From the IMG/VR virus record IMGVR_UViG_3300044676_006671, positions 1 through 27,531 of that record: DNA of 27,531 nucleotides. One strand, 5' to 3'. The notes beneath the pieces are model-generated. The model was not told the origin of the DNA and did no database searches. It was given only the letters and a program-made list of their open reading frames with translations. Positions 451-25,340 of this stretch are shown here, piece by piece (position 1 is the first letter of the stretch; each line of letters starts with the position of its first letter). The position numbers and the translations under genes are program-made. This DNA comes from a virus (lineage: Duplodnaviria; Caudoviricetes).

Positions 451-457
451 GCTACTA

Positions 458-484: not shown

Positions 485-495
485 ATTGAGGCATT

Positions 496-756: not shown

Positions 757-757
757 T

Positions 758-1591
758 ATGTTTATTGGCATTAAAGGTCTTGGAGTTGTAGGTTCGGTGG
801 TCGGCAATGTAAGCGGCCCTGCCTACGATTCTGACGCTCAAACCTACATTGATGCTGTAGAGGCTGCCGACGGTCAAGCGTTAGAGACTGATGTTAAAGA
901 AGCCTATAACAACTTCTTTGTAGGCTTAAAAGACGATGGGTTGCTCACTGACTTATCGGCTTGTTGCTTATTGCTTGGCGCTCGTACAGTCGCTGGTGCT
1001 TTAACTCCACTAGTTCCTTCCATGCCTACGCCCATCAACAACAACTTTGTTAGTGGTGATTACAGTAGAACCACAGGGTTAAAAGGTGATGCAAGCACCA
1101 AATATATAGATACTGGATTAGCCGCTAATTCAGATGGTCAAAATGATTTTCATTTGTCCGTGTATGAGACTGAACTGCACAATACTGGCGGTAGCACAGG
1201 AGGTATTATCGGATATACTGATTTCCCTGGTTCGGGAAATGCGGCTCAGATCGTGTATAGATACAACGCACTTTTTATTCAACGTGCAAAAGACCCTAAC
1301 AGCACTCAGCTATCTAGAGGTACAGCAACGGGATTTTCTGGCATCGTAAGAAATGGGCCATTCGGTTTTGATTACCGCTACCCCAGTGGCACCGGAAACA
1401 TTACAGGTACAAGTAGTGCTGCGCCAAGCGCCAATATGTATGTTTTTGCGAACCACTTGCCAGGAACAGGCGCATATATTAAAGCGAACGGCCGAATCAC
1501 CTTTTATTCATTCGGTGCGGCAGTAACACTTGCGACTCTTGATAGCCGAGTTTCAACTTTAGTCAGTGAAATTGGAGCCGCTTTGCCATGA
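758..1591 (+). CDS. Putative head fibre/spike protein
   Basis: N-terminal MFIGIKGLG resembles the anchor peptide of Rcc01080-type fibres that follow spike-base genes; beta-rich C-terminal domain. Confidence 0.55.
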   Translation: MFIGIKGLGVVGSVVGNVSGPAYDSDAQTYIDAVEAADGQALETDVKEAYNNFFVGLKDDGLLTDLSACCLLLGARTVAGALTPLVPSMPTPINNNFVSGDYSRTTGLKGDASTKYIDTGLAANSDGQNDFHLSVYETELHNTGGSTGGIIGYTDFPGSGNAAQIVYRYNALFIQRAKDPNSTQLSRGTATGFSGIVRNGPFGFDYRYPSGTGNITGTSSAAPSANMYVFANHLPGTGAYIKANGRITFYSFGAAVTLATLDSRVSTLVSEIGAALP

Positions 1592-1905
1592 CCTTAGAAG
1601 ACCTTATCCCAGATTTACCGCTGAGTTATGCCGAAGGCAAAACATACGGCTTAGTGTTTGCCGTAGATTTGAAAATGCGGCTTGATGAAATACAGCAAGA
1701 ACATCCACCTACTAATTACGCCACACCTGTAGAAACGGCTGATGGGCGTTACATACTTCACGGTGATTTACTCAGTGAAGTGGGGCCAGACGGAATGTTT
1801 GCTGGAACATTTTCTTATTTAGATCAATCGAGATTTAATGAGGTTGAGGTTTTGTCGTGGGCAGATGCACAAGCATTGTTGCCTCCAAGACCCGATCCTG
1901 TTTAG
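1588..1905 (+). CDS. Hypothetical protein (fibre-associated)
   Basis: ATGA overlap with the fibre gene; acidic, 105 aa. Confidence 0.6.
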   Translation: MTLEDLIPDLPLSYAEGKTYGLVFAVDLKMRLDEIQQEHPPTNYATPVETADGRYILHGDLLSEVGPDGMFAGTFSYLDQSRFNEVEVLSWADAQALLPPRPDPV

Positions 1906-1972
1906 AGCTTGTAATAGTGACTATGGTATATAAAAATATTGACAAACCGTTTATGTACCACAGGGAGAATTT

Positions 1973-2644
1973 ATGGCACAGGTAGATTGGGCAAGTATAA
2001 TGAATGGCAATAGCAAACCGCAAAGAAGGTACAGCGGAGCTAATGTGAAATTCTTTTATGCCTACAATGAAAATCGTGAAAAGTCGTTAAATGAGGGACG
2101 ACCTATATTTGACGAAATTCCTTCAATTTCAATTCAATGGCCTGGTGGTGATGAGACTGTTAGGCGCATAGAACAGCAGGATATTCATGAATACCCAGAA
2201 CTTTACGAGCGTTTTAAGGCAGGAAGTGAGCCAGTAACCGAAGGTACTCCACTAGCTGAGTGGGCTATGATGAGTGGTTCTGCACTAAGAGAGCTAAACT
2301 ATCTTGGCTTTAAGACAGTAGAGCAATTAGCAGCGGCAACTGATGAAGTTAAAAGAAAGATAGGGCCACTATCAAAACTTGTCACTATGGCAAAAGATTG
2401 GTTAGAGGCTGCAAATTCAGATCAAAATGAGGTGGTAAAGCTAAAACAACAATTAGCAGCAGAGACCGCAAAAAGAGAGCAATTAGAGGAAAAACTAGAG
2501 TTATTCCTACAACGCATTGAAGCAAACGAAGGAACGGATTTAAGACCGCTAAGAAAAGAAATGGCAGAAGAAGAAACACCTGTAGCAGCGGAACCAGTAG
2601 AAGTAGAAACGCCAAAGAGACGAGGTAGACCAAGGAAGCAATGA
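1973..2644 (+). CDS. Conserved phage protein of the head-tail region
   Basis: GGGAG RBS; GRPIF...EGTPL.EW...GFKTVEQLAA motifs, a coiled coil and a KRRGRPRK tail; overlaps the next start. Confidence 0.7.
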   Translation: MAQVDWASIMNGNSKPQRRYSGANVKFFYAYNENREKSLNEGRPIFDEIPSISIQWPGGDETVRRIEQQDIHEYPELYERFKAGSEPVTEGTPLAEWAMMSGSALRELNYLGFKTVEQLAAATDEVKRKIGPLSKLVTMAKDWLEAANSDQNEVVKLKQQLAAETAKREQLEEKLELFLQRIEANEGTDLRPLRKEMAEEETPVAAEPVEVETPKRRGRPRKQ

Positions 2645-3498
2645 GTTTAAGCACGGTTATTCAAAATGTAGCAGACGAAGCAGGGTACACCGTAAGCGCC
2701 AATGTGATCGGCGCTACCGATACTACTACGAAACAGCTTCTTGCAATTGCACAGCGAATTAACCTTGAAATGTTCGAGCAATACCCCTGGACTAAATGCT
2801 ATGCTTCAGGGGCTATTACTCTAGTGGCTGGTCAGGCGCAGTATGCCTTGCCAGCCGCTTTTTCTTATTATCAGTACGACACCTTCTGGAATCAATCTAA
2901 CCGCTGGAGAGTGTTGGGGCCAATGACGGCTCAAGACTATGCCGACATAAGAGGGTTTGGCCTTAACCCCACTATTTATCAACAGTTTCAAATAAGAGGT
3001 ATTAGCAATGATCAACTTCTTATTTATCCTACGCCGACGGAAAGCGGTGATGTCATCATTTTTGAATACATTGCGGATCGCAGTGTTAAACCTAAAACCT
3101 GGACAGCTACTACTGCTTTTCCGGCTGGTAGTTATTGTTTTTATAACGGCAATTATTATCAGACAACTTCTGGAGGCACGACAGGAGCAACTCCACCAAC
3201 GCATACTACAGGCAGTGTATCCGATGGTGGTGTGACTTGGACGTATTACAGTGGTTCCTACAATAAATTTCTAGCTGATACTGATAGTTCTGTTTTTAAT
3301 GAAAAAGTATTGGAGCAGGGCATCTTAGAAAGGTTTGCAGAGATTCACGGCTTAGACAGTGTAAGACCTAAATACCAAGTGCAATTACACGAGGAATGGT
3401 CGAGAGATATGCCAGCAAAGATTCAGTATGCTGGAACAATGAGACGCAATCAGATTTACGCAAGAAACGGAGTAGCATCATTTGGAACATGGATATAG
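2641..3498 (+). CDS. Head-tail adaptor (tail tubular protein A / P22 gp4-like) with an inserted CBM-like module
   Basis: N-terminal helices, 'ITLVAGQAQYALPAAF' and 'LLIYPTP...IIFEY' are adaptor-like; positioned upstream of the nozzle. Confidence 0.65.
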   Translation: MSLSTVIQNVADEAGYTVSANVIGATDTTTKQLLAIAQRINLEMFEQYPWTKCYASGAITLVAGQAQYALPAAFSYYQYDTFWNQSNRWRVLGPMTAQDYADIRGFGLNPTIYQQFQIRGISNDQLLIYPTPTESGDVIIFEYIADRSVKPKTWTATTAFPAGSYCFYNGNYYQTTSGGTTGATPPTHTTGSVSDGGVTWTYYSGSYNKFLADTDSSVFNEKVLEQGILERFAEIHGLDSVRPKYQVQLHEEWSRDMPAKIQYAGTMRRNQIYARNGVASFGTWI

Positions 3499-3501
3499 AT
3501 T

Positions 3502-5058
3502 ATGAATGGATTTCAACCACCTGCATTTGTAGCTAATGACCCTAGAGGTACTTTTTACTGGTACGTTTCTAACGGTATGCCATATCAAGAAGCTGCTAAT
3601 CTTGTAGCACAACGGTTCGGCCAACCGAAAACAAAAGAGCAATTAGCAAGAGAAAAAGAAAAAGCAGAACAAAACTATCAGGCTGGTCAAATTGCTGGTT
3701 CGTTAGGTGGCATGGTTGTCGGTGGTGAAGCGCTTGCTGGATTTCCTAACGTAAAAAAGTATTTGGGATATGGACAAACACCGACTGACGCAGGAAGCGG
3801 TTCTATTAGCATGACACGGCAAGTCCCACCTCCAACAACAAGTGTTGATGGTAGCGGAGCTGGAGCAGTAGATTTAGGTGGTGGTACAGGTGGCACTGGG
3901 GGCGGTGTTGCAACTCCAAAAGTATTAGAAGTTAAAGGAGCGACTGCAACAATAGAAACACCTGCTGGTGTTGAGCAGGTTCCATCGGAGGCTCTAAACG
4001 ATCCAGGGTTCTTTTCCAACATTGATTGGAATAAAGCAGCTCAAGGCGGCATGGGAGCCATGCAGCTTTATCAAGCATACAAAGCGTACAAGGGCGGCGA
4101 TAAGGTCGGAGCTGGTATTTATGGAACTGCTGGAGCAACAAACATAGCAGCTTCAGGGTTAGCAGGTCAGTTTGCACAGCAAGCAGCAGGAGACGCACTA
4201 GGAGGATATTTAATACCAGGCGTAAACGTAGTGACAGGTTTGTACAGTGGATACAAAACTGCTGATGCTCTTAGTGATATGGCGGCTGGTAACGATAGAT
4301 ATAAAACTGGCGCAATGGGAATGGCTGCTACGGGTGCTGCTATTGGTAGCGTGATTCCTGGTGTCGGAACAGCGATTGGAGCAGTTGTAGGAGCCTTAGC
4401 TGGACTTACGGCAGCTAAGTTTGGTTCTAGTAAAAACAAAGCACAAATGTTGCGAGATGGGATTCGTGATGTATGGCAAGAGAACGGAATTGTCGATGAA
4501 AACTATCAGGGTACATTGGCTGACGGCACAGCCTTTGACTTCGGTGTAGATGGTAGCAAGTTAAAATGGAAAGAAATTGATAAGATTGCGGAAGCACAGC
4601 CGGAGGCGTGGAGCGCAGCGGTAGGTCTGCTTGATCCCCTAGTGAGCAGCTACGGTCTTAAAGGGCAAAAAATGTCAGACGTTACGGCGTGGTTAGCTAG
4701 GGCAGCGGTTAGTAATGCAGGGAACGACCCACAGGTTGCTATTGAAAACGTAAAGCATTTTGCTGCACAGCAGGGCCTCGACGGAGATGCGTATCAGAAA
4801 ATAATGGATACCTTTCGAGCAGAGGACAAAATTACGGCAGAAGAATATGACCGAAATATGAGTCATGCTGCAAGATTGTTTGGAGAAGCAACGCCAGATG
4901 TAACGGAAGAGTTAATTGCACGACCTGCCGAGGGTGAGGTTGCAAGACTTTCTCCTGGCATGTATCGAGATGCTAGTGGCAATTTAGTGAAAGCAAATTC
5001 AATGCGAGCAGCGTTAGAAAAAGCATACAAGGGTAAAGAAAAAAGTAAGGAGCTATAA
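3502..5058 (+). CDS. Putative internal virion/ejection protein
   Basis: 518 aa, Gly/Ala-rich, with a glycine-zipper hydrophobic stretch (GAAIGSVIPGVGTAIGAVVGALAG). Confidence 0.55.
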   Translation: MNGFQPPAFVANDPRGTFYWYVSNGMPYQEAANLVAQRFGQPKTKEQLAREKEKAEQNYQAGQIAGSLGGMVVGGEALAGFPNVKKYLGYGQTPTDAGSGSISMTRQVPPPTTSVDGSGAGAVDLGGGTGGTGGGVATPKVLEVKGATATIETPAGVEQVPSEALNDPGFFSNIDWNKAAQGGMGAMQLYQAYKAYKGGDKVGAGIYGTAGATNIAASGLAGQFAQQAAGDALGGYLIPGVNVVTGLYSGYKTADALSDMAAGNDRYKTGAMGMAATGAAIGSVIPGVGTAIGAVVGALAGLTAAKFGSSKNKAQMLRDGIRDVWQENGIVDENYQGTLADGTAFDFGVDGSKLKWKEIDKIAEAQPEAWSAAVGLLDPLVSSYGLKGQKMSDVTAWLARAAVSNAGNDPQVAIENVKHFAAQQGLDGDAYQKIMDTFRAEDKITAEEYDRNMSHAARLFGEATPDVTEELIARPAEGEVARLSPGMYRDASGNLVKANSMRAALEKAYKGKEKSKEL

Positions 5059-5792
5059 TGGCAAGAGGAATGATGTCACGTCCACCAACTGGCGGCGGAT
5101 TAAAAGAGCTTAGCGCAAGACAACAACGACGCAAGCAGTATTTAGAGCGTCAAGGCCGAGAGTTTAAGCCCAGTGGTCGAGTAGCTGGTCAGCCTACAGA
5201 AATGCCAGAAATGACCGCTAGACAACAGCGACGGCAACAGTATTTAGCAAGGCGTGATGCTAGACGACAAAGAGCTGTAGAGGATTACAGAGCGCAACAA
5301 GCCGGGCAACAAGCCGGGCAACAGCTTGGAAGGTTTCCTGGACTTCCTGAAGGATTACCTGAAAATTATCAGCCGTATCCGTTGGATCTAACTCCAGAGC
5401 AAAGGAAACAATTAGAAAGTAATTTATTAAGTGGAAACTTCCGTAGCGACAATCCCAATGCACCTCAAGATGCAATGTTAAGAAGGCCAGCAGGATCTCC
5501 ACTTTTTGCAGATTATTTTGGCGGTCAAGGTTATGGCAACATGATGGGTCAACTACCTGCTGGTGTAACTCAAGGTCAGGCAGTAGCAGCAGCAATGCAA
5601 GAGCCAGAACGCCTACCAAATCCTGAAACATTGAATCGGATGCCAGGACAACCGTTCGGGCAATATACGGCAGCAGGACAGTACCGACCTCTACCATTCT
5701 ATGCAACGCCGCAGCAGATAAGAGAGAGGCAGGCGTTGATACAAGGTGGACATTATTTCAACCAGCTACCACCTGCACAACGAATGAGGTAA
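5058..5792 (+). CDS. Gln/Arg/Pro-rich putative internal virion protein
   Basis: AAGGAG RBS, TAATG coupling, low-complexity 244 aa. Confidence 0.55.
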   Translation: MARGMMSRPPTGGGLKELSARQQRRKQYLERQGREFKPSGRVAGQPTEMPEMTARQQRRQQYLARRDARRQRAVEDYRAQQAGQQAGQQLGRFPGLPEGLPENYQPYPLDLTPEQRKQLESNLLSGNFRSDNPNAPQDAMLRRPAGSPLFADYFGGQGYGNMMGQLPAGVTQGQAVAAAMQEPERLPNPETLNRMPGQPFGQYTAAGQYRPLPFYATPQQIRERQALIQGGHYFNQLPPAQRMR

Positions 5793-5795
5793 TAA

Positions 5796-7334
5796 ATGCC
5801 GCTGCAAGGTTTCACAATGCCACCACCATATCGGGGCTTAGACTTAATAAGCCCCGTAGATAACATGGATCCTAGCCATGCTTTAGAGCTAGTAAACGTG
5901 TTTTGTGGCCCAAGTGCGCCTACAGTCCGGTTAGGGTATGAGGAGTTTGTAAATACTGGCCTTAGCTCTCCCTTGTATTTTTTAGCTACATTGCAGTTAA
6001 AAAATGGCACTGAGCAACTTATTGCGGCAAACGATACGAACATATACAGCGTCAGCGAATCAGGAATTAGTACTGATATTACTAATTTGACACCACACAC
6101 AGATGCAGAGTTTCAGAGTACTGTATTTGCAAATAATATCTATTTTGCAAACGGTGTTGATCATTTTAGCGTATACACTGGCTCTGGAACTGTTACAGAT
6201 ACAACCTTTACGTTCGGTGGTGGTGTAACCGGACACGACATCATAAATTGCGCTAATTACCGTGAGCGCCTCTACATGATAGAAAAAGAAAGCGCTATTG
6301 TTCACTACGGAAATACTCAAGCTACAGGGGTTAGCGGTACGTCTAGCACAAACAGCTACGACTTTCAGTATGTATTTAATCACGGTGGGTTTTTAGTAAA
6401 CTGCGGAACCTACACAAATCAAACGTCAACAACCTCACAAGCTCTGTTTTTTGCATGTAGCAGTGAGGGCGAGATGGTCTTCTTTTCAGGAACCTCGCCA
6501 AGTGATTCTAACTGGTCTTTAGTTGGTCGATACTACATAGGAAAGCCATTGGGTTATCGAGCGTTTATTCCTATCAACGCTGATATGTGGGTGCTGACAC
6601 AGCAAGGCATTGTGCCGATTTCGAGCTTGTTTAAGATGGATCCTGTTCAAGCTGTAAATACAGTTAGTGCAAAAATTAACCCCTTTATAAGTGATTACGC
6701 TGCACAACTTTCTTTTGACCATGAGTGGGCAGGTGTGTTTTGGCCAGCAGGCAGACGAGTCTATGTAAGTGTTCCGACTAGTAGTACGACCGTTAGTTAT
6801 TTAGTTTATAGTCTTGATACACAGGCATGGTCGGAGTTTAGACTTTCAAGCAATACTCATGGAATTAGCCTAGCGGTATTTAATCGTTTGCCATACTACG
6901 GTTCGGCGCAAGGCATTATTTGGAAGGGCGAAACAGGGCAAGCTGATGCTGTTACTGCTACTGACAGTCAATCAATAGTGTATTCCGGCAGAAGTGCATT
7001 TAGCTTTTTTGGCAGTCGAGCTAACTACAAAGTATTTGCTGATATTCGGCCAATTGTAAGAACAAAACGAGGAGTCACTCTTAACGTAGGAATAGATACC
7101 GACTTTAAGAGAGCAACTGCAATTACTGGAGTCACTACGGCTCCAGGCGTGTTTACTCCGTGGGGTAGTCCGTGGGGTAGTTCGTGGTCGTCAGATTTAG
7201 ATTACATATTCGATAGGTTTGCAACAGAGGGGCAAGGCCACTGTGCGGCTTATCGTTTTGGTGGTTCACTAAAAAACGCAAGTATGCAAATTTTGGGTAT
7301 GGAAATCCGCTTTAATCTTGGAGGACAGGTATAA
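5796..7334 (+). CDS. Tail nozzle / tail tubular protein B (P22 gp10-like, beta-propeller)
   Basis: 512 aa, beta-rich; N-terminal PPYRGL..SPVDNM.P..A..L.N and C-terminal PWGSPWGSSW motifs are typical of podovirus nozzles. Confidence 0.7.
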   Translation: MPLQGFTMPPPYRGLDLISPVDNMDPSHALELVNVFCGPSAPTVRLGYEEFVNTGLSSPLYFLATLQLKNGTEQLIAANDTNIYSVSESGISTDITNLTPHTDAEFQSTVFANNIYFANGVDHFSVYTGSGTVTDTTFTFGGGVTGHDIINCANYRERLYMIEKESAIVHYGNTQATGVSGTSSTNSYDFQYVFNHGGFLVNCGTYTNQTSTTSQALFFACSSEGEMVFFSGTSPSDSNWSLVGRYYIGKPLGYRAFIPINADMWVLTQQGIVPISSLFKMDPVQAVNTVSAKINPFISDYAAQLSFDHEWAGVFWPAGRRVYVSVPTSSTTVSYLVYSLDTQAWSEFRLSSNTHGISLAVFNRLPYYGSAQGIIWKGETGQADAVTATDSQSIVYSGRSAFSFFGSRANYKVFADIRPIVRTKRGVTLNVGIDTDFKRATAITGVTTAPGVFTPWGSPWGSSWSSDLDYIFDRFATEGQGHCAAYRFGGSLKNASMQILGMEIRFNLGGQV

Positions 7335-8197
7335 TGGCAAATGGGGCAATGGGGCAAGACCCAAGACAACAAGCGGCTGCCGAGCCGAACAGTCAAAGGA
7401 TGCAGAGACGGTTGCAATATCTGCAAAGAACTCGTCCTAACGATCCTGCTGTAAAGCGGCTACAAGCAAGACTGCGTGGTATGCCTGATTATCAGGCTCC
7501 TGATTTTCGGACGTTATCGCCTGAGCAACAAGCAGAACAAATGGCAGGAACTAGCGGCTCTGTTTATGAGCAAATGGCTGGTTACGCTCAAGGGTTTGAT
7601 CCTCGTACAATGCAGAGTCAGTATGAACCTATTTATTCTCAAGAAATGGAGAGAGCTAGGCAGAATGTTATGGGGCAGTTTGAAAGACAAATGGCTCCTG
7701 AGTTTCAGAGACAGCAAGAGCAGTTTCAACAGATGGCGGCAGAGAGAGGTTTAGATCCTAACTCTGTGGCGTACAAGACTCAGCTACAGCAATTAAATGA
7801 AAGGCAGGATGCTGCTAGACAGCAAGCTGTGAGCCAAGCTGAAACAGCCGCACAGGGCGTACAACAATCAATGTTTAGCCAAGCTGGTCAAATGGCAATG
7901 ATGCCTGGTCAGATTGCAAGTCAATTCCAAGACCCATATAAGCTAAACTTTGCTCAAATGTTAGAGCAACAGAAAATGGCTTTTGAAGCGAGACAGGCAG
8001 AGCTTGAACGGCAGAATCGGTTGCAGATTGCAAGGACGCAAGGAAGTGGCAGTCAAGGGCCAACGCCATATGACCGATACATAGCTGAAACAATTGAAGG
8101 TGGTTATGGCGGTGGACAACAGCCTAATCCGTTTGCTGGTTTTGCTGGTGGCTTTGCTGGCGGCTTTGGTCAGGGATATTTAGGAGGATCTAAGTAA
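7334..8197 (+). CDS. Putative DNA ejection/pilot protein
   Basis: GGAGG RBS; Gln-rich helical protein with a Gly-rich C-terminus, directly after the nozzle. Confidence 0.6.
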   Translation: MANGAMGQDPRQQAAAEPNSQRMQRRLQYLQRTRPNDPAVKRLQARLRGMPDYQAPDFRTLSPEQQAEQMAGTSGSVYEQMAGYAQGFDPRTMQSQYEPIYSQEMERARQNVMGQFERQMAPEFQRQQEQFQQMAAERGLDPNSVAYKTQLQQLNERQDAARQQAVSQAETAAQGVQQSMFSQAGQMAMMPGQIASQFQDPYKLNFAQMLEQQKMAFEARQAELERQNRLQIARTQGSGSQGPTPYDRYIAETIEGGYGGGQQPNPFAGFAGGFAGGFGQGYLGGSK

Positions 8198-9420
8198 TGG
8201 CAGATGAAGGTTTGTTAGGCGTACCAATGAGTTTTGGTATTGGCGATACTTTACTAGGATCGCTAGGAACTGGTTTGGCTAGAGCTACTCCTAAAATGAT
8301 TAGCCCCTATGCCTCTACAGGTACAGCTATTGGGTTAGGACTAGGCAGTGTGTTGTTGCAGTCATTGTTAGGCTATCAAGCTAGACAGCAAGCAGCCGAC
8401 AGAACTATTGAGCTTAACAAGCTATCTACTCCACTACTAGGTATGCAGACAGCACAGGAGAGATCTGATTACATTTCAGGATTAGGTGACGTAGATACGC
8501 AAGTGCTTGGTAGACTAAGTAGCTTATCAGGAGCGTTAGGAAGTCGTGCTATTGAGCAGCAACAAGAATTAGATCTAGCAAAACGAAAGGCAGAGCTTGA
8601 CTATAAAATGGAGCTAAGTCCGATGGCTCAACAGCTTGCAGAGCTAAAGCTAAGTCGAGAAAAAGAATTAGCGGAAGCAAGAGCTTCAGTTTTTGGCAGC
8701 AGGTTTGCAGTTGGCGATCCAGAAAAAAACAAGATAATGCAAAAAAGGTTTGGCGCACTTAATTTGAAAAGTAAAACTGCCTTAAATTTATTGGAACCAG
8801 AAGAGTGGCAACAATTAGACGAGGGTACTTTACAGCCAAATCTAGCCCTAAATTTAGCTAATGAAAGGCAAAGAAAACTTGATATAAGCCCTGAAGGCAC
8901 AGGGTTAAGTCCAAAACAAGCTGAAGAGGCAGCAGGGCAAGATCAAATAATAAATGACGTTACGCTACATATAGAAAAAATAAAAAGCATACCGGAAGTA
9001 GCACTGCAATTAGCATACAAATCACCAGTTGCCGCCACAGCATTGGGCAAAATGAGTGCAAAACTGGCCGATGGCGAGTTACCAGAAGGTTTTCTTGCGA
9101 ATAATGAAGCGCTTGCGGCAACAATTAGAAAAGAATTGTTTGGACAAACTTTGACTGGCAACGAAAAGAGATCGTTTGATATTGTAACAGGGAAAGAAAC
9201 AACGAGTAGCAAAGCTGATATTATAGCAGCATGGGATTATCTCATAACTAGAGCTAGATCTAATCTAGCATCAAAACGTAAGTATGTCGGCATGACTAAA
9301 GAAGAGTTTGCTCAAGGAGGCGGCGCTGACACTAAAAGTAAAATTAATTCAGATGACAAGTTAGCGGAGCAACTTAGAAAAGAAATTGCTGAGTTAAAAA
9401 GGGAATTAGAAGTTGATTAA
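8197..9420 (+). CDS. Putative DNA ejection protein
   Basis: AGGAGG RBS, TAATG coupling, N-terminal Gly/Leu hydrophobic segments, helical remainder. Confidence 0.6.
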
Positions 9421-9446
9421 AAAACAATAGTTGCGGTGAGACGGTA

Positions 9447-12400
9447 ATGAATCCAGAGGTAAAAGAATTACAAAAAGAACTTGCTGTTTTGAAAGCCCTA
9501 AAACAGAAGCGAGATGCCGAAAAACAAAGACAAGTTGTTTCTGCGGCAGAGCCTTCTTTGTTTCAAGAATTTAGAGACTACCTAATAGAGCGTCCCTACA
9601 CTGGTCTGAATGTCGCTTTAGGTCTTACAAAGGGATATACTGAAACGGCAGATCTACCCTCAACTGTAGCCACACTTACAGGAGCAGTTGAGCCTGATAC
9701 TCTTCCTCGTTTTACTACTCCAGTTGAGTCTTTATCTGAAGCATTGTTAGGAGAGAAGCAACAGCTAGGCACTCAAGAACTAGCTAGTTATTTTTCTCCT
9801 TTTGGCCTTCGCAAATTAGGAACGCAAGCTCTTAGTGGGTTAGGGGCGTATGTGGGGGCTAAATCGGCTGAAAAGCTTGCGCCAGAAAATTTGACAGCAA
9901 GGATCCTTGCGCCCTTATTTGGAGCAACAGCGCCAACGCTTACAAGAATACCTGGCGCAGTGACAAGAAAAGCTTTGACAAAAGGAGAGCCTCTTACCGA
10001 TGCGTTAAACATAGAGCGACAAGCACAAAAAGAAGTAGCAAGAGAGTTAACGCTCGAAGAAGCACAAAGACTAGCGGCAGCACAAGAGGCAGGCACAATT
10101 ATGTCTACTGTGCCCTATCCGAAGACTCTTGCAGAAGTCGTACAAAGTCCTGATGTTGCTCTTTATCAAGATGTAATCAGAGGCAAGGAAGGTGGTGCGC
10201 CAATTTTAGAGGCTATGGAAGCTAGAAAGAAAGCGCTTACTGGCGAACTGGAAGAGATAGCGCCAGATTCAAAAGTAGGCGAACTAAGAGACGAAGTGTT
10301 AGCGGTAGCAGAACAAGAACAACAGGCGCAAGCTGCAATACGAGGAAAGTTAATAGATCAAATTGAGGGATTAGAAGCTGGAACGAAGCGTGAGGCAGGT
10401 GCTGCACTGCAAGGTGGTTTAGTTGAACGTAAAGCAGAAGCAAAAGCTGCTTTAGATGCAAAATGGGAGAGTGTTCCTAAAAACTTAGAAATAGATGTGA
10501 CCGAAGAAATCGAACCTATTTTTAAGTGGTGGAGGGATCAAAATCCAATAAGGAGACGCAGGGCAAAAGCGGTTGGCTCAGTAATTAACGATCTCAAACG
10601 AACAGCTACCGATCTTAAAAACCCAGAATACATAATGACGTATGATACCTTTCAAGCAATTAGGGAAGGTGTAAATGATATTATTGCTAATCAAAGCGCT
10701 CCGGCAAGCACAAGACGTTACGCAAGAATACTCAAAAATAAAATGGATCAAGCAATTGGATCAATTGATCCAAAAGCAGACGAGTTACTAGATTTAGGCT
10801 TTTCAACAAATGATGTAACTGCGTTGTACGATGCAATTAAAGAAACACGAGCCTTTCACCAGAAATTTAGTGAAGGGTTGACTGGAAATCTTACCTCAGA
10901 ACGTTTAGGTGAACTTAAAACAAAAGCAAGCAATGTTATACAATTAGCACTTAAAAACCCTGAAAACGTCGCAGAGGTAATGACTAAATTTGGACGAACC
11001 GCTGATGAATCATTGATACTGCGGCAAGAATTGATGAAACGGTTAACGGACGCTAAAAACCCTAGTGTGTATCTAAACAAAAATGTAGACCTATACAAAC
11101 AAGCGTTTGATGTTGATTTTGATGCTATAAATAATTATGCCAAGTTAAAACAAGCTGGCAGTCCGTTAGATGCTTACACAAAAGGCGTTGTTTCAGATGC
11201 CAGCATAGCCAATAAGATATTTAGATCGGAAAAAGAAACAGCGAAGTTTGTTAAAGATTTTGAAGGCAGCGCTGCTGTTCCTTTAGCGAAAGGCAAGTTA
11301 ATTGATCTTGTAACAAAGCGAGGAGATGCTGCGAAGCGATTAAGCGATTATGAAAATGTTGGATCGTCACTGTTTAAGGAAGATTGGGAATTAGTAAAAA
11401 ACGTTATTCAAGACTTAGAAGGCGTTAAAAGTCCGAGCAGGTTATTTAAGAAAAAAACAGCCGGAGAATCAGGAACACAACCCCGTCAAGTTAAAGAGAA
11501 AGCAATTGCAGGGGGGAGAAGAATCTACAGATGGGCAGACAAGGCTCCAGCGCTAGGTGCTGCGTTAGGTGCTTTTATGTCTAAACCTTTTGGTGTTACG
11601 GGAGCGCTAGCAGGAACCGCTATTGGTGCAAAAGCTGGAGAGTTTGTTAAGGGCCGCTTCGGTAACAGAGAACAAAGACTAAATAAAGCGGTTGCCTCCT
11701 TGCTAGCAGATCCAAGAATGATCGAAATCGGCAAGAAAGAAGCAACTGCCGAAAATGTTAAAGTTCTTGATGATTTTCTTACGCAAATTGCTTTCGGTGG
11801 AAGGGGGGCAGCCATTTCTGCAAACACAGAGGCAATTGAAACTGAAGCTAGCGAAGCGACACAGCCAAAAGTTAAAAGTCCAGAATTGGAAACTTTACAG
11901 AGTGAGCTAGCTTTCCTAAAAAAACTTAAAGAGCAAAGAAACAGGGAAGCAAGCCAGTCACAAAGTAAGGCAGCTACACCTACGGCCACTGCTACACCAA
12001 CCGAAACAAGCATTGCAACAAATACACCTACAGCTACACCTACAGCCACTACTACACCAACCGAAACAAGCGTTGCAATCGAAACAGCCACAGCAACGCC
12101 TACGGCCACTGCTACACCAACCGAAACAAGCATTGCAACAAATACAGCCACAGCTACGCCTACAGTCGAGCCGACTAAAACTATTCCTGCTACCCCAACA
12201 ATAACAGCAAAAGGCGTGTCTTATAATATTCCAGTGGGCGATAAATATCCTGACCCAGAGCTGGTCAAAGCTGTAGTAGCGGTAGAATCTAACAATAATC
12301 CAAAAGCAAAGAGCAAAGTGGGTGCAACTGGATTTATGCAGTTGATGCCAGCTACAGCTAAAGAGTTAAAAGTGGATATTAACGATCCACAGGAAAACAT

Positions 12401-12626
12401 CGAAGGCGGTTCACGATACCTACAAAAGTTGATAAACCGTTTTGATAGTGTAGAACTCGCTTTAGCAGCCTATAATTGGGGGCAAGGAAACATAGCTAAC
12501 GCTCTCAGAAAGCTAAAGGGCGAAGGCAGGGAGCCTACATGGGAAAACATAAAACGATTTAATCCGAGATTGCCTAAAGAAACTAGGCTATATGTTGGTA
12601 AGGTATTAAGAAAATTAGGGGCATAA
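9447..12626 (+). CDS. Large ejection protein with a C-terminal SLT lytic transglycosylase
   Basis: 1059 aa; C-terminal AVES..NP.A.S.VGA.G.MQLMP.TA and AAYNWG SLT motifs; glycine-zipper segments; Thr/Pro linker. Confidence 0.85.
11971..12165 (+). repeat. 60-bp tandem repeat (~3.25 copies) encoding a Thr/Pro/Ala linker
   Basis: Units start at 11971, 12031, 12091 and 12151 (CAGCTACACCTACGGCCACT...), encoding ~[20 protein letters not shown]. Confidence 0.95.
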
Positions 12627-12627
12627 T

Positions 12628-13608
12628 ATGGGATGGTCAGGTGGAACCTATACTAAGGGAAACAATGCAACAGGTGGATGGGCCGGTGATGCTAGTCTAG
12701 GTATCGGTATAGAAGCTGGTCGTCACGATACACAGGACGATGACTTTACTGGCGGTATAAACAATTGCATTGCAAAAGATGGTCAGAACACGCCTACTGC
12801 TAATTTACCGATGGGTGGATACAAGCATACAGGTGTAGCTAACGCTAGTAGCAACGATGAGTATACGAGCCAAGGACAGCTACAGGACGGAAGTTTTAGA
12901 CCCAAGTTTTTGAATCCTCAGTACGTTGGCAGCATAACATTTTTTAATCAGACTAATTGCTACAATGGCGGCACAGCAAATGTTGAGCAGTTAAACGTAA
13001 GTAGATCGTCAACTGTCGGCGTTGATACTGCAATGCAAGCAGGCGATGTGCTTTATCGTCACGACATTCAAAGTTATACCGGAACAGGCTACGCTCGATC
13101 CGTTCAGGTTTCAGCAACGTGCCCAGTCAATCCGACTGGAGGGGCTGCTTTTGCACCTGGCTCTTACAATATCTCAGTGGGCAACTCTACAGGATCGGCT
13201 TTAGTTTCAGCGCTAACCATTAACTCAAGCGGTTGGATTTATGCGCCTGAAGTGTATTCAAATACAACAGGTAATGCCGCAAATGTTTATGTGCATACTA
13301 CAGGATTACTGCAACGCTCTACATCGTCGTTGCGATACAAAGAAAACATTGAGCCGTTAGCGTATGGCTTAAATGAAGTGCAAAAGATTAAGCCTGTAAC
13401 TTTCACAAGTAAGGGTGACGATTCTGGGCTTAGATTTGCAGGACTAATTGCTGAAGACTTAGATGAGCAGGGCCTAAAAGAATACGTTTCATACGATGAC
13501 AATGGCCAGCCTGACGCTATACATTACGGGAACCTTGTGACATTAGCATTCAAAGCCATTCAAGAGCTGGAAGCCAAAGTAGCATCACTTGAGGCGCAGC
13601 TTGCATGA
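12628..13608 (+). CDS. Tail fibre with a C-terminal intramolecular chaperone (peptidase S74)
   Basis: SSLRYKENI cleavage-type motif, GLIAEDL and AIQELEAKV coiled coil; N-terminal KDGQ.TPTANLPMGG tail-attachment motif. Confidence 0.85.
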   Translation: MGWSGGTYTKGNNATGGWAGDASLGIGIEAGRHDTQDDDFTGGINNCIAKDGQNTPTANLPMGGYKHTGVANASSNDEYTSQGQLQDGSFRPKFLNPQYVGSITFFNQTNCYNGGTANVEQLNVSRSSTVGVDTAMQAGDVLYRHDIQSYTGTGYARSVQVSATCPVNPTGGAAFAPGSYNISVGNSTGSALVSALTINSSGWIYAPEVYSNTTGNAANVYVHTTGLLQRSTSSLRYKENIEPLAYGLNEVQKIKPVTFTSKGDDSGLRFAGLIAEDLDEQGLKEYVSYDDNGQPDAIHYGNLVTLAFKAIQELEAKVASLEAQLA

Positions 13609-14021
13609 AATATCTTCGCTTGGTGAGAGTTACGGAACATAACGGAGCAACTCTGGGTGTGCTGACTATTGACGGCATGGCTGAAGTGTTGACGTTAGAG
13701 GATCCGTGGCATCTCAACGAGCGAAACATTAGCTGTATCCCAGAGGGGCGTTACAAGATAAAACCGAACAACAGCCCTAAGTTTGGGAAAACTTACATAC
13801 TTGAGGATGTACCAGAGAGAAGTTACATTTTAATCCATCCTGGCAACACACCTAAAGATACTCACGGTTGTATCCTGGTGGGATTACAGTACGGTGAGTT
13901 AAATGACATGCCAGCAGTTTTAGCGAGTCGTAGTGCTTTTGGTAAGTTTATGGAGCTTATGGCAGGCGATGAAGGAGAAATTGTAATTATAAACGCCTAC
14001 GGTGGTGGGAGGGTGCATTGA
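13605..14021 (+). CDS. DUF5675-family protein, endolysin candidate
   Basis: T.G.L...TLE.PW..N....SCIP.G.Y and VP.RS.ILIH.GN...DT.GCILVG motifs; next to holin-like genes. Confidence 0.8.
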   Translation: MKYLRLVRVTEHNGATLGVLTIDGMAEVLTLEDPWHLNERNISCIPEGRYKIKPNNSPKFGKTYILEDVPERSYILIHPGNTPKDTHGCILVGLQYGELNDMPAVLASRSAFGKFMELMAGDEGEIVIINAYGGGRVH

Positions 14022-14260
14022 CTGAGGGCGATTTTACACAAGTTAAGTATTGGTTTGACCTTGCTATCAAGGCAATTATTGGTGTTGTCGTGAGCCTTAT
14101 TGGGCTAGACTATCGAGCAGTGAAGACAGATTTAGTTGAGTTGGAAACAGCTAGATACCACATGACAACTGAAGTTGAGATTCTCAAAAACGAGCTAAAC
14201 CACATTAAACGCAGCCTGGATAAAATTGATGATAAATTGGGTAAAGCTATTAACCGTTAG
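14018..14260 (+). CDS. Holin-like membrane protein (1 TM plus coiled coil)
   Basis: TM segment LAIKAIIGVVVSLIGL followed by a coiled coil; TTG start overlaps the lysin stop. Confidence 0.55.
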   Translation: MTEGDFTQVKYWFDLAIKAIIGVVVSLIGLDYRAVKTDLVELETARYHMTTEVEILKNELNHIKRSLDKIDDKLGKAINR

Positions 14261-15053
14261 TCTGCTCTTTGTTTCCTCTGCCTCTGCTACCCCTAGCTAC
14301 TTAGCCCTTTGTCATAAAAACTGGAATTGCGAAGAAACGTTTTCCACCTTTAAGCACACCATAAAAACAGGCTGGTTAGACAATACTTTTGGCACTAAAT
14401 GTAGCTGCGTTAGCAAGCTGCTAAACGACCCTAGAGATAAAGTATTTAGGGTACATATCATGAACAGCCCTTGCATGAGAAACCGTCGGTGTGGGCGATA
14501 TGAGCTGTTACACGGCGAGACTGCTTTTAGTGCTAGTAAAAAGATAAACAGGGGTAACAGAAAGTTTTTGAATAGATACAAAAGGCGAGTAAAAATATTA
14601 GGCAGGCGCATTGCTAAAGCTAAGGGCAATGTAAAGCTATATGTCAGTCCGTGTCTTGAGTGTGATATTCGTGGGAAAGCTAGAAAGCGTTTGTTGGCTA
14701 TTACTGCTTCTCTCTTACCTACTGCTATTCTGGTGGACAATCCCTATCGGCAGCGTTGTATTAAAGGTGTAGTTTGTGAGAAGCATGGAATTAGTCCAAG
14801 GTTATCAACACCTTGCATTGTTGATTTAGACGGTGTTGACGGTGATGTTGTCGATGTAAAAAGCTGGTTGCGTAACTATAGCCATTGTGAGTTACAATAC
14901 TATTGGAATTACGGAATGAACTGTATTTCAGGAGGGTTTGTCGATCCTAGACTACGAAGCTGTGCGCTAGGTCGGCAATACTTCTTTAATTTAAGGAAAA
15001 CACTATGCCAGTATTTTGGGGATCTATCGTCCGACATTTGCTCACCGCTGTAG
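14226..15053 (+). CDS. Secreted Cys-rich basic protein of unknown function
   Basis: Signal peptide ending SASA, about 16 Cys, Lys/Arg-rich. Confidence 0.65.
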   Translation: MMINWVKLLTVSLLFVSSASATPSYLALCHKNWNCEETFSTFKHTIKTGWLDNTFGTKCSCVSKLLNDPRDKVFRVHIMNSPCMRNRRCGRYELLHGETAFSASKKINRGNRKFLNRYKRRVKILGRRIAKAKGNVKLYVSPCLECDIRGKARKRLLAITASLLPTAILVDNPYRQRCIKGVVCEKHGISPRLSTPCIVDLDGVDGDVVDVKSWLRNYSHCELQYYWNYGMNCISGGFVDPRLRSCALGRQYFFNLRKTLCQYFGDLSSDICSPL

Positions 15054-15190
15054 CAGGTGCTTTAGTTGGCGTGGGAGTTGCAGAGCCAGCAGCAACCGAC
15101 TTTGTTAATGCTGCTGAGCCAGTAGTTGGTGGCATTTTGCTTTATGCCATTGGTCAAGTTTGGTCTATCTTTGACAAGACTAAAAAGTAG
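15005..15190 (+). CDS. Putative holin (Pam3-gp28-like, 2 TM)
   Basis: S.VRH.LT...G.LV..G and WS..DK pattern; AAGGA RBS. Confidence 0.65.
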   Translation: MPVFWGSIVRHLLTAVAGALVGVGVAEPAATDFVNAAEPVVGGILLYAIGQVWSIFDKTKK

Positions 15191-17376: not shown

Positions 17377-17708
17377 TTAGTTTCTCTCGGCAGATCGTGT
17401 TTCCAGAAATATGCGTCAACAATCGAATCGGTATTTACAACTACGTCAACGGTTACAGCTTCCACCTCGTCAAGCGATCCTCTTTCGATGCATTCTCCGA
17501 ACCGCCCAGTATCAGCGATCCAAGCAGCATCTTCGAGTACCAAAAACTTACCTTTTATTGCTTTTACTCGACCTGTTACAGCAAAGGTAACAGTCCTAAT
17601 TAGCCATTTCTGATTTACTACAAACGGCAATTCTACAGCAGAGCTATTAAACAACTCTTTTATAGAACTACCGACCAACTTTTCTATGTCTTTCTCATTT
17701 ATTTCCAT
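17373..17708 (-). CDS. Putative Sm/LSm-like (SH3-barrel) protein
   Basis: WLIRTVTFAVTGRVKAIKGKFLVLEDAAWI fits the Sm1 beta pattern and VVVNTDSIVD fits Sm2; AAGGAG RBS. Confidence 0.5.
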   Translation of the reverse strand: MEINEKDIEKLVGSSIKELFNSSAVELPFVVNQKWLIRTVTFAVTGRVKAIKGKFLVLEDAAWIADTGRFGECIERGSLDEVEAVTVDVVVNTDSIVDAYFWKHDLPRETK

Positions 17709-17845
17709 TGTTTCTCCTTTATTTCGTCCATTTGTTTATCCCAAAACTCTTGAGCTTCTTTTAGCCCTTCCTCCAGCTCTGTCACATCACAATTAGCTAG
17801 AAAGTCGGTCAACCTGTCTACAAAGTTTTGTATGTCGTCAGTCAC
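17699..17845 (-). CDS. Small acidic hypothetical protein (48 aa from GTG 17845)
   Basis: GTGA overlap with the upstream stop and an AAGGA RBS; the longer ORF-track start would overlap the upstream gene heavily. Confidence 0.5.
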   Translation of the reverse strand: MTDDIQNFVDRLTDFLANCDVTELEEGLKEAQEFWDKQMDEIKEKQWK

Positions 17846-18064: not shown

Positions 18065-18544
18065 TTACTTTACCCCCATATTTAATTTACTAACCAATGT
18101 AACACCCTCAACCTCTGCGCCAGCTTTTAAGTCGTCTAGTAGTAGCTTCTTATTAGGCTCTACAGTCACTTTTGTTCGCTGATATGCTTCTGGTAGATCT
18201 TCTGCCTCTACCGTCACATCCACCGATTGTGAGGCTCTCCAGGTTATTTTATGTCGACTAGACTCGTAAGCCTCTCGCTCATCCATCTGCCCCTGAAGAT
18301 ACCCTAGCAAGCTTTCTGCTCTCTTCTCATAGCTTTTAGACCTGTCAGCTAAGGTTTTAGCTTCTGCTTTGATGCCTTGAGCCATAAAGCGCAAATGCTT
18401 AACGTAGCTAAGAACAGCCTCGATCTTATCTTTACGCTCTAAAGCTAATGCTTGCCAAGTGTCGGCTAAGGTTTGCTCGTCAAGTTCTTCTGATAGCTCC
18501 TCTAGTGCTAACAGCTCTTTGTTTAATTCATATAGTGTTGTCAT
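18065..18544 (-). CDS. Siphovirus Gp157-family protein
   Basis: MTTLYEL..., coiled coil, I.WR.S.SV.V...LP..Y...PNKK.L...LKAG.EV.GV.L pattern. Confidence 0.85.
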   Translation of the reverse strand: MTTLYELNKELLALEELSEELDEQTLADTWQALALERKDKIEAVLSYVKHLRFMAQGIKAEAKTLADRSKSYEKRAESLLGYLQGQMDEREAYESSRHKITWRASQSVDVTVEAEDLPEAYQRTKVTVEPNKKLLLDDLKAGAEVEGVTLVSKLNMGVK

Positions 18545-18561
18545 GTGTTCTCCTTGTTTGC

Positions 18562-20168: not shown

Positions 20169-20197
20169 TTGTGCAAGAGGGTAAAAAGAGGTAAAAT
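20169..20197 (+). promoter_or_regulatory. Sigma70-type promoter of the putative sRNA
   Basis: TTGTGC-17bp-TAAAAT. Confidence 0.55.
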
Positions 20198-20203
20198 AGA
20201 ATT

Positions 20204-20268
20204 AGAAACAGTAGTGTGTTTCTCCTTTAAGCTACACAATTTACTTCGCAGGGTTGTGTAGCTTTTTT
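20204..20268 (+). ncRNA. Putative trans-acting anti-RBS small RNA
   Basis: No ORF between promoter and terminator; segment 20212-20228 (TAGTGTGTTTCTCCTTT) is antisense to the RBS/start regions of several - strand genes. Confidence 0.55.
20229..20268 (+). terminator. Rho-independent terminator (+ strand polarity)
   Basis: 11-bp stem AAGCTACACAA/TTGTGTAGCTT; the T-run follows only on the + strand. Confidence 0.75.
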
Positions 20269-20809: not shown

Positions 20810-21070
20810 TTACTCGCCGAAGAGTCCGTCTAAATGATCTTGAAGCCAGTAAAAAGCTTCAAGTTGTCCTAGCTCAAACTCCGACAGCTTCTCCCTACTC
20901 CCTTTCAGCTTTTTTTCTACAGCCAAAAGAAAGTCCTCGAAGTAGTGACGTACACTTGTAGCCCCTTGTGTAAAGGCTTCCGCATAGTCATCCCGATTTT
21001 GAGGTGCTCTACGAAACGGTGTGTAATGTAGCGCAAACTGCGCTGCATCTTTAACTATCTGATTCTCCAC
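20810..21070 (-). CDS. Hypothetical protein
   Basis: AGGAGG RBS, GTG start. Confidence 0.6.
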   Translation of the reverse strand: MENQIVKDAAQFALHYTPFRRAPQNRDDYAEAFTQGATSVRHYFEDFLLAVEKKLKGSREKLSEFELGQLEAFYWLQDHLDGLFGE

Positions 21071-22727: not shown

Positions 22728-22985
22728 CTATTTTAGATCTAAAGTTGGTTGTTCACACTGCACAAAGTAGCACTTCAAAGGTACAGCATTATGACGTGTC
22801 ATTGCGCTCGATTCTTGCCTTTCATCTACTCGATACAATCCAGCCTTTGCGCCTAGCTCAAATCCTGAGCATGCTGATAGGGTGAGCGTTAGATACAAGC
22901 CTACGCCTAGAGCTATTGTGTATACTAAGTGCGTTATAAAAACGTCCATTTTGTCTGCTATCTCGTTTAATTTTTCGTGGTTCAT
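22728..22985 (-). CDS. Membrane/lipoprotein-like protein
   Basis: Hydrophobic segment ending LSA-C; extended RBS motif. Confidence 0.6.
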   Translation of the reverse strand: MNHEKLNEIADKMDVFITHLVYTIALGVGLYLTLTLSACSGFELGAKAGLYRVDERQESSAMTRHNAVPLKCYFVQCEQPTLDLK

Positions 22986-23024
22986 AGTGTTTTTCTCCTT
23001 TTTTACACGTTAGCGATCCTAAAC

Positions 23025-23077: not shown

Positions 23078-23686
23078 TTATGCGGATACTTGAGCAGATT
23101 CTAGCCTTGCTTTCTCTGCTTTTAATTCAGCTATGTAATAATCGTGAAACCGTTCTTTATAGTCGCAACCTCTAAAAGCTACTGGAACAAAGTCCCATAT
23201 CTCAGCCCAAGTAGTACGCCACTCAGAATCGCAATGTTTGCAAGCGATAACAGGAACGACTAGCCCGCCATGCACTTTTAGATATTTGATATAGGCTGGT
23301 CTTCTAAAGCCGTTAAAGCCTAGCTTGATCTCGCCATAATCTTGATCTGCCGTTTTCAAGCCGTGATAGCAGGGAACAATCACCTGTAACCCACTTGCTT
23401 CGTCTCTAAACGCTATTCGACCAGCATCGCATTCTGACAGATCAAAGTTTTTCTCTTTATCGTATAGCCAGATTCCCTCGTTTGTATGACTTTCATAGTG
23501 TCCCGGTTCGATCCCGTCTTCGCTATAAATAGGACACCGAAACCGTAAGCCTTCAGGTTGTCTGGATGGATCTACGCTTCCCGAAATAGCTTTTACTTTG
23601 TGCCGATCTTCATACCGCAGATAGTACATCGTTTCGCATGTACCGATCTTGATCTCGTTATTTTTATATAGTGCATATTCTCCCAT
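23078..23686 (-). CDS. Conserved early protein of unknown function (202 aa from ATG 23686)
   Basis: AAGGAGAATAAGCACT-ATG; IKIGTCE.MYYLR motif; C-terminal CxxC. Confidence 0.7.
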   Translation of the reverse strand: MGEYALYKNNEIKIGTCETMYYLRYEDRHKVKAISGSVDPSRQPEGLRFRCPIYSEDGIEPGHYESHTNEGIWLYDKEKNFDLSECDAGRIAFRDEASGLQVIVPCYHGLKTADQDYGEIKLGFNGFRRPAYIKYLKVHGGLVVPVIACKHCDSEWRTTWAEIWDFVPVAFRGCDYKERFHDYYIAELKAEKARLESAQVSA

Positions 23687-23716
23687 AGTGCTTATTCTCC
23701 TTTTGTTAGTACTCAC

Positions 23717-23766: not shown

Positions 23767-24060
23767 CTAAACTTTGCCTAACTTTATTGTGTAGTCTCCG
23801 AAAGTCCAAGATTGTCCGATATACTTGTGGGCTTGCTCACAGTCGAACACCACGGAACCGTCACTATCAAAAACTAGATGATAATTTTCGAAATCGTCCA
23901 ATTCCATATCATACTCCCCACGAGAATATTCCCACTCGCAATTCTCGAAGTGCTCTAGTAGCTCGTGAACAGCATGTTCAACTTTTAAGTGACAGGAAAC
24001 CCAATTGCGCCCAAGCGTATGCTCACCATAGACTCGTGTGATGGTATATGAATTTTTCAT
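23767..24060 (-). CDS. Acidic early protein of unknown function
   Basis: AGGAGAAAACACT-ATG; flanked by hairpin elements. Confidence 0.7.
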   Translation of the reverse strand: MKNSYTITRVYGEHTLGRNWVSCHLKVEHAVHELLEHFENCEWEYSRGEYDMELDDFENYHLVFDSDGSVVFDCEQAHKYIGQSWTFGDYTIKLGKV

Positions 24061-24085
24061 AGTGTTTTCTCCTGTTAGTACTCAT

Positions 24086-24141: not shown

Positions 24142-24690
24142 TTATAACTCTCGCATCGGCATAATTACCGCAATTTTATCGCTGGACTTGAAATAAACAG
24201 GCGCTCCTTCCTTAGCTTGCGAAAGCTCCCAGACTGTTGAGGCTTTTAACAAGTCAGCCAGATATGCGCCGTTGATCGGTATTCGGATATTCCCTTGATC
24301 TGGATGGCTGTTAAAGTCTAGGTTCCAATTTATGCCGTCCTTATTGTCATAGCTTAGAACAACATGATCTCCAGTTATCTCAAGTATCATCGGCGTAGCT
24401 TTGTATTCACCTATTTTAGAGATAGCGATCACAGTTTTTGATTGTTTAGCATCTAAGTGTAGCAAGTGGGTGGACTTTGGGATCTCATCTAAAAACATTC
24501 CTAGATCGGGAGGCGTGTAAGGATCGGATGTTAGGCTTATCGTTTTTAAGCCGTAATCGTGATTGGTAGCAATGCCGTGTATCCTATGTCCATCGGTAAC
24601 ACAACGATAGTTCTTATAACCTATCTCCGATTGGCAGTTGTATCTCTTTTCCTTTTTCGCTTGTTTAAGGACTGTTTCAAAGTATTTCAT
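24142..24690 (-). CDS. Truncated DNA polymerase III beta-clamp-like protein (182 aa from ATG 24690)
   Basis: VTDGHRI (cf. ATDGHRL), INGAYLADLLKA (cf. FN..YL.D.L) and PV.F......AVIMPMR (cf. VVMPMR). Confidence 0.7.
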   Translation of the reverse strand: MKYFETVLKQAKKEKRYNCQSEIGYKNYRCVTDGHRIHGIATNHDYGLKTISLTSDPYTPPDLGMFLDEIPKSTHLLHLDAKQSKTVIAISKIGEYKATPMILEITGDHVVLSYDNKDGINWNLDFNSHPDQGNIRIPINGAYLADLLKASTVWELSQAKEGAPVYFKSSDKIAVIMPMREL

Positions 24691-24718
24691 AGTGTTTGTC
24701 TCCTTTTGTTGCACCCAT

Positions 24719-24782: not shown

Positions 24783-25277
24783 TCAGTACTTTGCACGAAC
24801 CTCTCTCAGCATAAAACACAATTCAGATAAGTCTATTTCTGTCGCATTAAAGCGTTGCATTAGTTCGCCTAGGTAAATTCCGTCACACAGATAATCATCT
24901 AGGCTGGAATAAATTTCATCCATTAGCTCGTGGAGGGTTTCACGATCAAACTTTCTTGTGGCGTTTTCGCCGTTGAAATACTCCTCTTGAATGTGATCGA
25001 GTAATTCGTCAAAAACTTTTGATTGTTCTGAATTTAGTTTCAACTGCGGTAGGTAACATGCACACACTTTTATCTCGTGAGTATCCTCATCTAGAAGGCT
25101 AATAGAACCAACGTAACTGTAAGTTCTATTGTCATAACAACCCCTAGCAAGTTTTACTGTGGGTGTACGAAACCTGTCCTCTTTGGCAAACATTTGCCAG
25201 CCGTGAGAAATGTAGACGAACTTGTCCTTCAGTGGAGTGTCGGTGTCGAATGGGCGTATTATATGTTCAACTTCCAT
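24783..25277 (-). CDS. First early gene, hypothetical (acidic C-terminal half)
   Basis: AAAGGAGAAAAACATT-ATG directly downstream of a promoter. Confidence 0.7.
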   Translation of the reverse strand: MEVEHIIRPFDTDTPLKDKFVYISHGWQMFAKEDRFRTPTVKLARGCYDNRTYSYVGSISLLDEDTHEIKVCACYLPQLKLNSEQSKVFDELLDHIQEEYFNGENATRKFDRETLHELMDEIYSSLDDYLCDGIYLGELMQRFNATEIDLSELCFMLREVRAKY

Positions 25278-25311
25278 AATGTTTTTCTCCTTTAACTAAC
25301 TAACTTACCTC

Positions 25312-25340
25312 ATTCTACATGTAAAGATGCTTGCTTGCAA
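25312..25340 (-). promoter_or_regulatory. Strong sigma70-type early promoter
   Basis: Minus strand TTGCAA-17bp-TAGAAT with an A/T-rich upstream tract. Confidence 0.75.

Follow-up and report, generated by a model that had tools for sequence, protein, structure and literature searches.

A predicted 65-nt small RNA matched to the shared leader of early genes in a family of uncultured aquatic phages

How phages that rely on the host RNA polymerase shut off their early genes is an old question, to which proteins, RegB and RegA among them, are the known answers. The locus described here raises the question of whether a single short RNA could do the same work. It lies in a 27.5-kb partial virus record (27,531 nt; hereafter the window), where a first-pass annotation had proposed a small RNA antisense to a ribosome-binding motif shared by many early genes. 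The best sequence matches of the window are estuary metagenomes; none of the 24 runs listed among the matches is of RNA, which does not bear on expression. The phage belongs to an uncultured aquatic family whose complete relatives measure 33–36 kb. Among cultured phages, the tail protein alone has matches, at <30% identity, and the marker protein has none; a search of a genome collection returned a single 33% match and no clue to the host. The genes of the window are arranged as follows:

1..15190, + strand: structural and lysis genes
minus strand: block with RusA-like and Gam-like genes
+ strand: HTH gene and rep gene (19446–19870)
minus strand: early operon, from the gene starting at 25277 through the SLT and ERF genes to an 86-aa gene (end 20810)
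20810..21070, minus strand: the 86-aa gene, last of the ERF recombinase operon; synteny marker preceding the unit in relatives
25312..25340, minus strand: promoter-like site upstream of the early operon, called from a consensus match alone

Behind the rep gene, a stretch of direct repeats with AT-rich sequence (19875–19980) is a likely origin, and some strain contigs are divergent between ~19980 and 20066. Two tandem RS/WS-repeat ORFs with similar starts (16909–17376, minus strand, and L001:2237–2759) possibly encode basic nucleic-acid-binding peptides.

Between the rep gene and the end of the recombinase operon lies a compact unit with these predicted parts:

20169..20174, + strand: −35 box TTGTGC of a predicted promoter (box match, strain-invariant)
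20192..20197, + strand: −10 box TAAAAT of the same promoter (box match, strain-invariant)
20204..20268, + strand: predicted 65-nt small RNA with a putative start; fold z −4.7
20204..20223, + strand: predicted 5′ hairpin with arms 20204–20210 and 20217–20223 and loop 20211–20216
20221..20228, + strand: anti-Shine-Dalgarno (anti-SD) core UCUCC (20221–20225) and open linker (20224–20228)
20229..20268, + strand: intrinsic terminator and U-tract

The promoter boxes and their 17-nt spacer are exactly as first described. A consensus promoter scan found 18 sites in the window against 26.3 in shuffles, and the unit promoter, a poor consensus match, was not among them; the call is based on the box arrangement being conserved in relatives. 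The terminator (20229–20264) likewise agrees with the earlier description, with 11 Watson–Crick and 3 G–U pairs and a U-tract that works on the + strand only. None of 200 shuffles was as stable as the fold of 20204–20268. Strain contigs carry 12 variable sites within 20066–20268, and none falls in the RNA or the boxes, the nearest being at 20203 (p = 0.003, or 0.02 if the sites are counted as 8 clusters). The RNA overlaps the neighbouring gene by only 2 nt, at that gene's stop codon. One element of the first description has to be revised: the seed is not a wholly unpaired segment, since 20217–20223 pairs with 20204–20210 (7 bp), leaving just 20211–20216 and 20224–20228 open. The loop 20211–20216 is complementary to bases at the target start codon. 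Searched against Rfam at E up to 1, the window gave a sole match, to atoC, at E 0.94. By prediction and conservation, the unit shows the general traits of a trans-acting small RNA, namely its own promoter, an intrinsic terminator, a conserved fold and no ORF, and it is very probably a real small-RNA gene.

The loci of relatives were gathered by means of two marker proteins; a query with the rep protein gave 4 loci, of which L002 and L003 differ in gene order and were left out. In relatives, the unit faces the recombinase operon convergently where that operon ends; clade C (L017, L040) has it immediately after the recombinase gene itself. A strict detector, run behind the marker gene of 86 aa, picked up an antisense unit in 26 of 34 distinct contexts; on random windows it fired 14 times in 400, with 8 of these hits on family units and 6 on non-family sequence. 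Among its eight misses, L010, L029, L030 and L058 have units outside the searched stretch, the L036 locus is incomplete, L045 and L050 carry a variant slot, and in L023, a weak marker match, no unit was detected. L107 was discarded as an unrelated chance match.

We extracted 25 units, the window included, picking the −10 boxes by eye and reading the −35 boxes off afterwards. The units measure 61–71 nt, except for one 91-nt and one 115-nt form. A −35 hexamer starting with TTG stands at 17-nt spacing in 19 of the 25, and five further units have an 18-nt spacer and a TG extension. The 5′ hairpin and the terminator are predicted in all 25; the anti-SD core has 2–4 of its 5 bases unpaired in every unit, and the 5′ arm tracks the seed throughout. 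Lineages differ widely in their hairpin pair types; these were tallied by structure, as a cross-clade MAFFT alignment misaligned the stems and no covariance model was built. In clade B, about 99–100% of cells are paired and three terminator stem pairs are altered on both sides, in a comparison with shuffles that kinship among the sequences can beat. The promoter strand holds 67 G–U pairs against 8 A–C mismatches, a count biased towards the folded strand, and 23 of the 25 units fold better on that strand, L017 and L018 folding better on the opposite one.

Several variants accompany the family. The clade B terminator loop (L007, L009, L013, L014, L015, L084, L085) is near-invariant while its stem changes; its sequence complements the leader spacer at the point where the 5′ seed fails to match, making it a possible second seed. 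In L013 (5161–5262, minus strand), a second promoter–hairpin–terminator unit lacking the anti-SD core stands in tandem with the family unit. The L046 variant (876–985, minus strand) has an extra hairpin between seed and terminator, the loop of which equals the clade G 5′ loop. A tRNA gene on the other strand abuts the unit terminator in L060 (6593–6665) and L066 (6680–6752), and in L029 a tRNA lies ~1.7 kb from the unit.

Targets in the window were scored over 48 hand-listed starts by net pairing energy, which includes the cost of opening both RNAs. The seven best are all motif-bearing minus-strand genes, with net energies of −14.1 to −10.0 kcal/mol:

25275..25295, minus strand: target leader of the first early-operon gene (start 25277); 17/19 matches, net −14.1 kcal/mol, rank 1 of 48
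22983..23003, minus strand: target leader (start 22985); 16/17 matches, net −13.6
23684..23706, minus strand: target leader (start 23686); bulged pairing, net −12.1
18542..18558, minus strand: target leader of the Mu Gam-like gene (start 18544); bulged pairing, net −11.9
17706..17722, minus strand: target leader (start 17708); perfect 13-mer at 17709–17721, net −11.4
24688..24708, minus strand: target leader (start 24690; the gene weakly matches a polymerase processivity-factor family); 15/17 matches, net −10.6
24058..24077, minus strand: target leader (start 24060); one-bulge match, net −10.0

The first-pass annotation had expected early starts to rank at the top, and they do: the ten best starts, these seven included, are all on the minus strand, and an automatic gene list of 45 starts is headed by six of the same seven genes. 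The best + strand start (25915) reaches a net −7.2 kcal/mol; among 17 structural and lysis starts, −5.9 is the best value. The match counts for 22985, 25277 and 24690 and the 13-mer had been given exactly, and the partial matches at 24060, 23686 and 18544 do pair, with bulges; the start at 21070, also named as a partial match, is weak (net −6.2 kcal/mol, rank 12 of 48). Late + strand starts had been said to lack the motif, which does not hold for 15005, where part of it is present, though with a net energy of just −4.2 kcal/mol. Raw duplex energy by itself is unexceptional: six of the 20 best raw duplexes genome-wide fall at starts (0.8 expected) and 14 elsewhere. The window seed keeps one persistent mismatch to the commonest leader, as do the clade B seeds.

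A repeated stem-loop element at 23709–23765 (minus strand) precedes a target RBS, with similar copies at ~24078–24135 and ~24711–24768. It forms a long interrupted stem with a conserved base and a variable tip, resembles elements in L009, L013 and L082, matches no Rfam family in the window, and may be a processing site of the RNase III type or a repeat used in recombination. In L017 (3005–3063, minus strand), a type II hammerhead ribozyme lies directly before a predicted target RBS; its score of 39 bits exceeds the cut-off. Processing at such stems or at the hammerhead would bring each leader close to a 5′ terminus.

If pairing matters, the seed should change together with the leaders. Early gene sets were defined by position, independently of the RNA, and 13 phages were scored against 15 RNAs, L001 being omitted for its length. 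With seven clades, which were drawn from the unit sequence and are not fully independent because an anchor-protein tree with three deep lineages does not recover D, F and G as single groups, the cognate diagonal for early genes was the best of 5040 labellings (residuals −1.6 to −4.8 kcal/mol), bearing out the expected co-variation; for non-early genes it ranked 840 of 5040. With five merged clades, early genes ranked 1 of 120 (residuals −2.3 to −3.9) and non-early genes also 1 of 120, with small residuals (−0.1 to −0.8). Shuffles that kept the core reached the observed pairing in 0–2 of 200 cases in 11 of the 13 phages, the weak ones being L060 (26/200) and L078 (11/200). Early starts differed from other starts at the 0.05 level in only 6 of 13 phages.

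A wobble test was less favourable. If pairing is selected, G–U pairs are expected to favour antisense over mirror pairing; we counted 63 G–U pairs for antisense and 81 for mirror pairing (7 and 1 in the window). Antisense pairing was the stronger in 8 of 13 phages, and the mirror was the stronger by far in L009. Antisense pairing is thus not favoured over a copied leader and, as the seed invariably shares its strand with the leaders, it may be such a copy. The window RNA and the L082 RNA each prefer their own leaders, and the L082 RNA pairs with the window leaders as well as the window RNA does, so the specificity of the match is not strict. Units are swapped wholesale between close relatives: the 65-, 91- and 115-nt forms stand beside proteins that are 72–95% identical, and they do not track the protein tree.

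Could the unit act in cis instead? It might be a convergent promoter and terminator insulating the early operon at its end, or encode a cis-antisense RNA that covers the start of the next gene, its likeness to the leaders then stemming from copying or recombination among cassette repeats with no selection for pairing. The leaders do belong to longer repeats, the phage encodes an ERF annealing protein, and the wobble test was neutral to negative. Yet the match is limited to the last 17–20 nt of the repeat, the 5′ arm follows the seed in all 25 units, and in the window no minus-strand gene follows. Across the 25 units, the codon opposite the seed is ATG in 12 (ORFs of 2–28 aa), ACG in 8, TTG in 2, CTG in 2 and none in 1; no conserved ORF starts there, and the eight ACG units retain pairing with AUG. 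L101 has a second CTG, in frame with the next gene. Judged by this lack of a conserved ORF, the 25 units do not overlap the start or body of a target gene as cis-antisense RNAs of the sar or OOP kind do. The worry that the site might be the RBS of a real ORF, raised in the first-pass annotation, therefore finds no conserved ORF behind it in the window, and it may be justified in one sub-lineage. In L045, L047, L050, L103, L105, L106 and L108, promoter and terminator are retained in the slot but CUCC is absent, and the slot faces the ATG of an extended next gene of 128–131 aa, whose product, from its acidic tail, looks like a ssDNA-binding protein. Where upstream DNA is present (L103, L105, L108), pairing to upstream starts spans −4.5 to −14.9, with no common strong leader. 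In the L045/L047/L050 sub-lineage the unit thus looks cis-acting and possibly overlaps its target. A second type of unit, at L029 +924, L056 +4522, L067 +4225 and L077 +4175 (similar copies at L100 +9410, L101 +1269 and L102 +3813), has a promoter-like site within the rep start and runs antisense across the rep RBS into a terminator, which looks like cis-antisense control of rep; its covering of the rep RBS in L029, L056 and L067 also speaks for action in cis. The slot without CUCC and this second unit over the rep RBS together suggest that the unit began as a cis-antisense RNA and gained its trans targets later. As an account of the 25 units, a purely cis-acting role is unlikely.

A general anti-SD decoy, aimed at host mRNAs or any strong SD with the fit to phage leaders secondary, would be favoured by the core, CCUCC or UCUCC, which equals the conserved anti-SD core of 16S rRNA (PMC10783764), and by clade B, which retains CCUCC though most of its leaders read GGAGA. 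The bases flanking the core, however, follow each phage's own leaders, and core-kept shuffles pair far worse, which makes the decoy distinctly improbable. Still less credible is a type I toxin–antitoxin pair in which the site is the RBS of a hydrophobic 32-aa peptide read from a CTG (20211–20113, minus strand) behind a good SD, with the RNA as its cis-antitoxin. The start, length and sequence of this frame are not conserved, so that a conserved hydrophobic toxin ORF is missing opposite the unit; it carries no coding signal, with 3/7 and 3/5 strain changes synonymous, no more than in other frames, and tblastn with it gave nothing better than E 0.5. An RNA coupled to the origin, as a primer or replication control, was suggested in the first-pass annotation by position, the unit lying ~270 nt from the direct repeats of the rep gene in the window. 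As rep lies elsewhere in L029, L030 and L056 and the unit stays with the recombinase operon, this closeness is incidental and the coupling can scarcely be maintained.

Given a conserved unit with a two-hairpin fold and a fixed convergent location, and a seed and leader that match lineage by lineage, we consider the 65-nt RNA to be probably a trans-acting repressor of early-gene translation through a shared leader, with a probability of about 0.68. The earlier proposal of one RNA against an early regulon thus stands as far as the ranking of early starts and the co-varying seed are concerned; repression itself is a prediction. In the proposed mechanism, the host RNA polymerase would transcribe the unit from phage entry onwards. 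The open anti-SD linker and the loop would make first contact with a leader, after which the short hairpin would unzip to give a duplex of ~16 bp, at a net −10 to −14 kcal/mol. This duplex would exclude the 30S subunit from the SD-to-start leader of about seven early genes, and decay would perhaps follow. Since the RNA would build up over time, early and host-takeover genes would likely be braked with a delay; this is the simplest reading and would make the RNA an equivalent of the T4 protein RegB. A lysogeny switch had also been envisaged; tyrosine integrase, resolvase and ParA-type proteins were found in none of five complete related genomes, in searches that detected their positive controls, and a classical lysogeny switch is unlikely. 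The phage may have a carrier state.

Several known systems share parts of this design. The c4 antisense RNA is cut from a precursor by RNase P, in contrast to the window unit with its own predicted promoter and terminator. In phages P1 and P7, c4 is described as pairing around a phage RBS through sequences in loops and blocking translation of its target, ant mRNA, with sequence differences underlying heteroimmunity (PMC12197685). The window RNA is likewise predicted to pair around phage RBSs, with its pairing sequence partly in a loop; the predicted pairing, at unlinked sites, co-varies, and the wobble test is unsupportive. Where c4 acts on ant mRNA, the window RNA fits some seven early genes that are unlinked and have one standard leader in common. 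The C4 antisense RNA model (RF01695) had no match in the window (E up to 1) or in 10 related loci, no antirepressor was found among the 37 proteins scanned in the partial window, and, with integrase, resolvase and ParA missing from the five complete relatives, there is no sign of the antirepressor operon of a temperate phage. T4 RegB is described as a protein endoribonuclease that needs S1, inactivates many early transcripts at a GGAG Shine-Dalgarno followed by an A-rich spacer and aids the early-to-later transition (PMC3014915). The window RNA, by contrast, would recognize its leaders by base pairing. By analogy, its mode of action would resemble that of c4 and its role that of RegB, while it falls outside the C4 family.

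The sar RNA of P22 and OOP of lambda have a cis arrangement with one overlapping target each, unlike the window RNA and its 2-nt contact with a stop codon. Each is described as a short antisense RNA of a phage, made from a promoter of its own; initiation is blocked by sar, and the OOP promoter has a role in replication control (PMC12197685). The lytic phage PAK_P3 makes two abundant late small RNAs, sRNA1 and sRNA2, for which silencing of translation in trans is proposed; each has one perfect 11-nt phage match and, unlike for the window RNA, the accessible text of that report names no common leader target (PMC4933390). In literature largely outside subscription papers, we found no description of a phage small RNA against a shared early leader. 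The seed motifs had no match in three of the six supplementary files of a further survey, and the 10,006 candidates left unnamed there may include the family (PMC10690425).

The swapping of units between relatives brings up a more tentative idea, that standardised early leaders and one master small RNA form a swappable specificity module made of RNA and comparable in function to RegB. This is possible rather than probable; if true, the module would time early shut-off, and a resident phage would use it to silence early genes in co-infecting kin. The natural seed–leader pairs from several lineages provide a ready cross-matrix and could serve as orthogonal translation switches. If the main reading is right, a 65-nt RNA that silences a set of genes through one leader would be a compact RNA solution to early-gene shut-off in this family.
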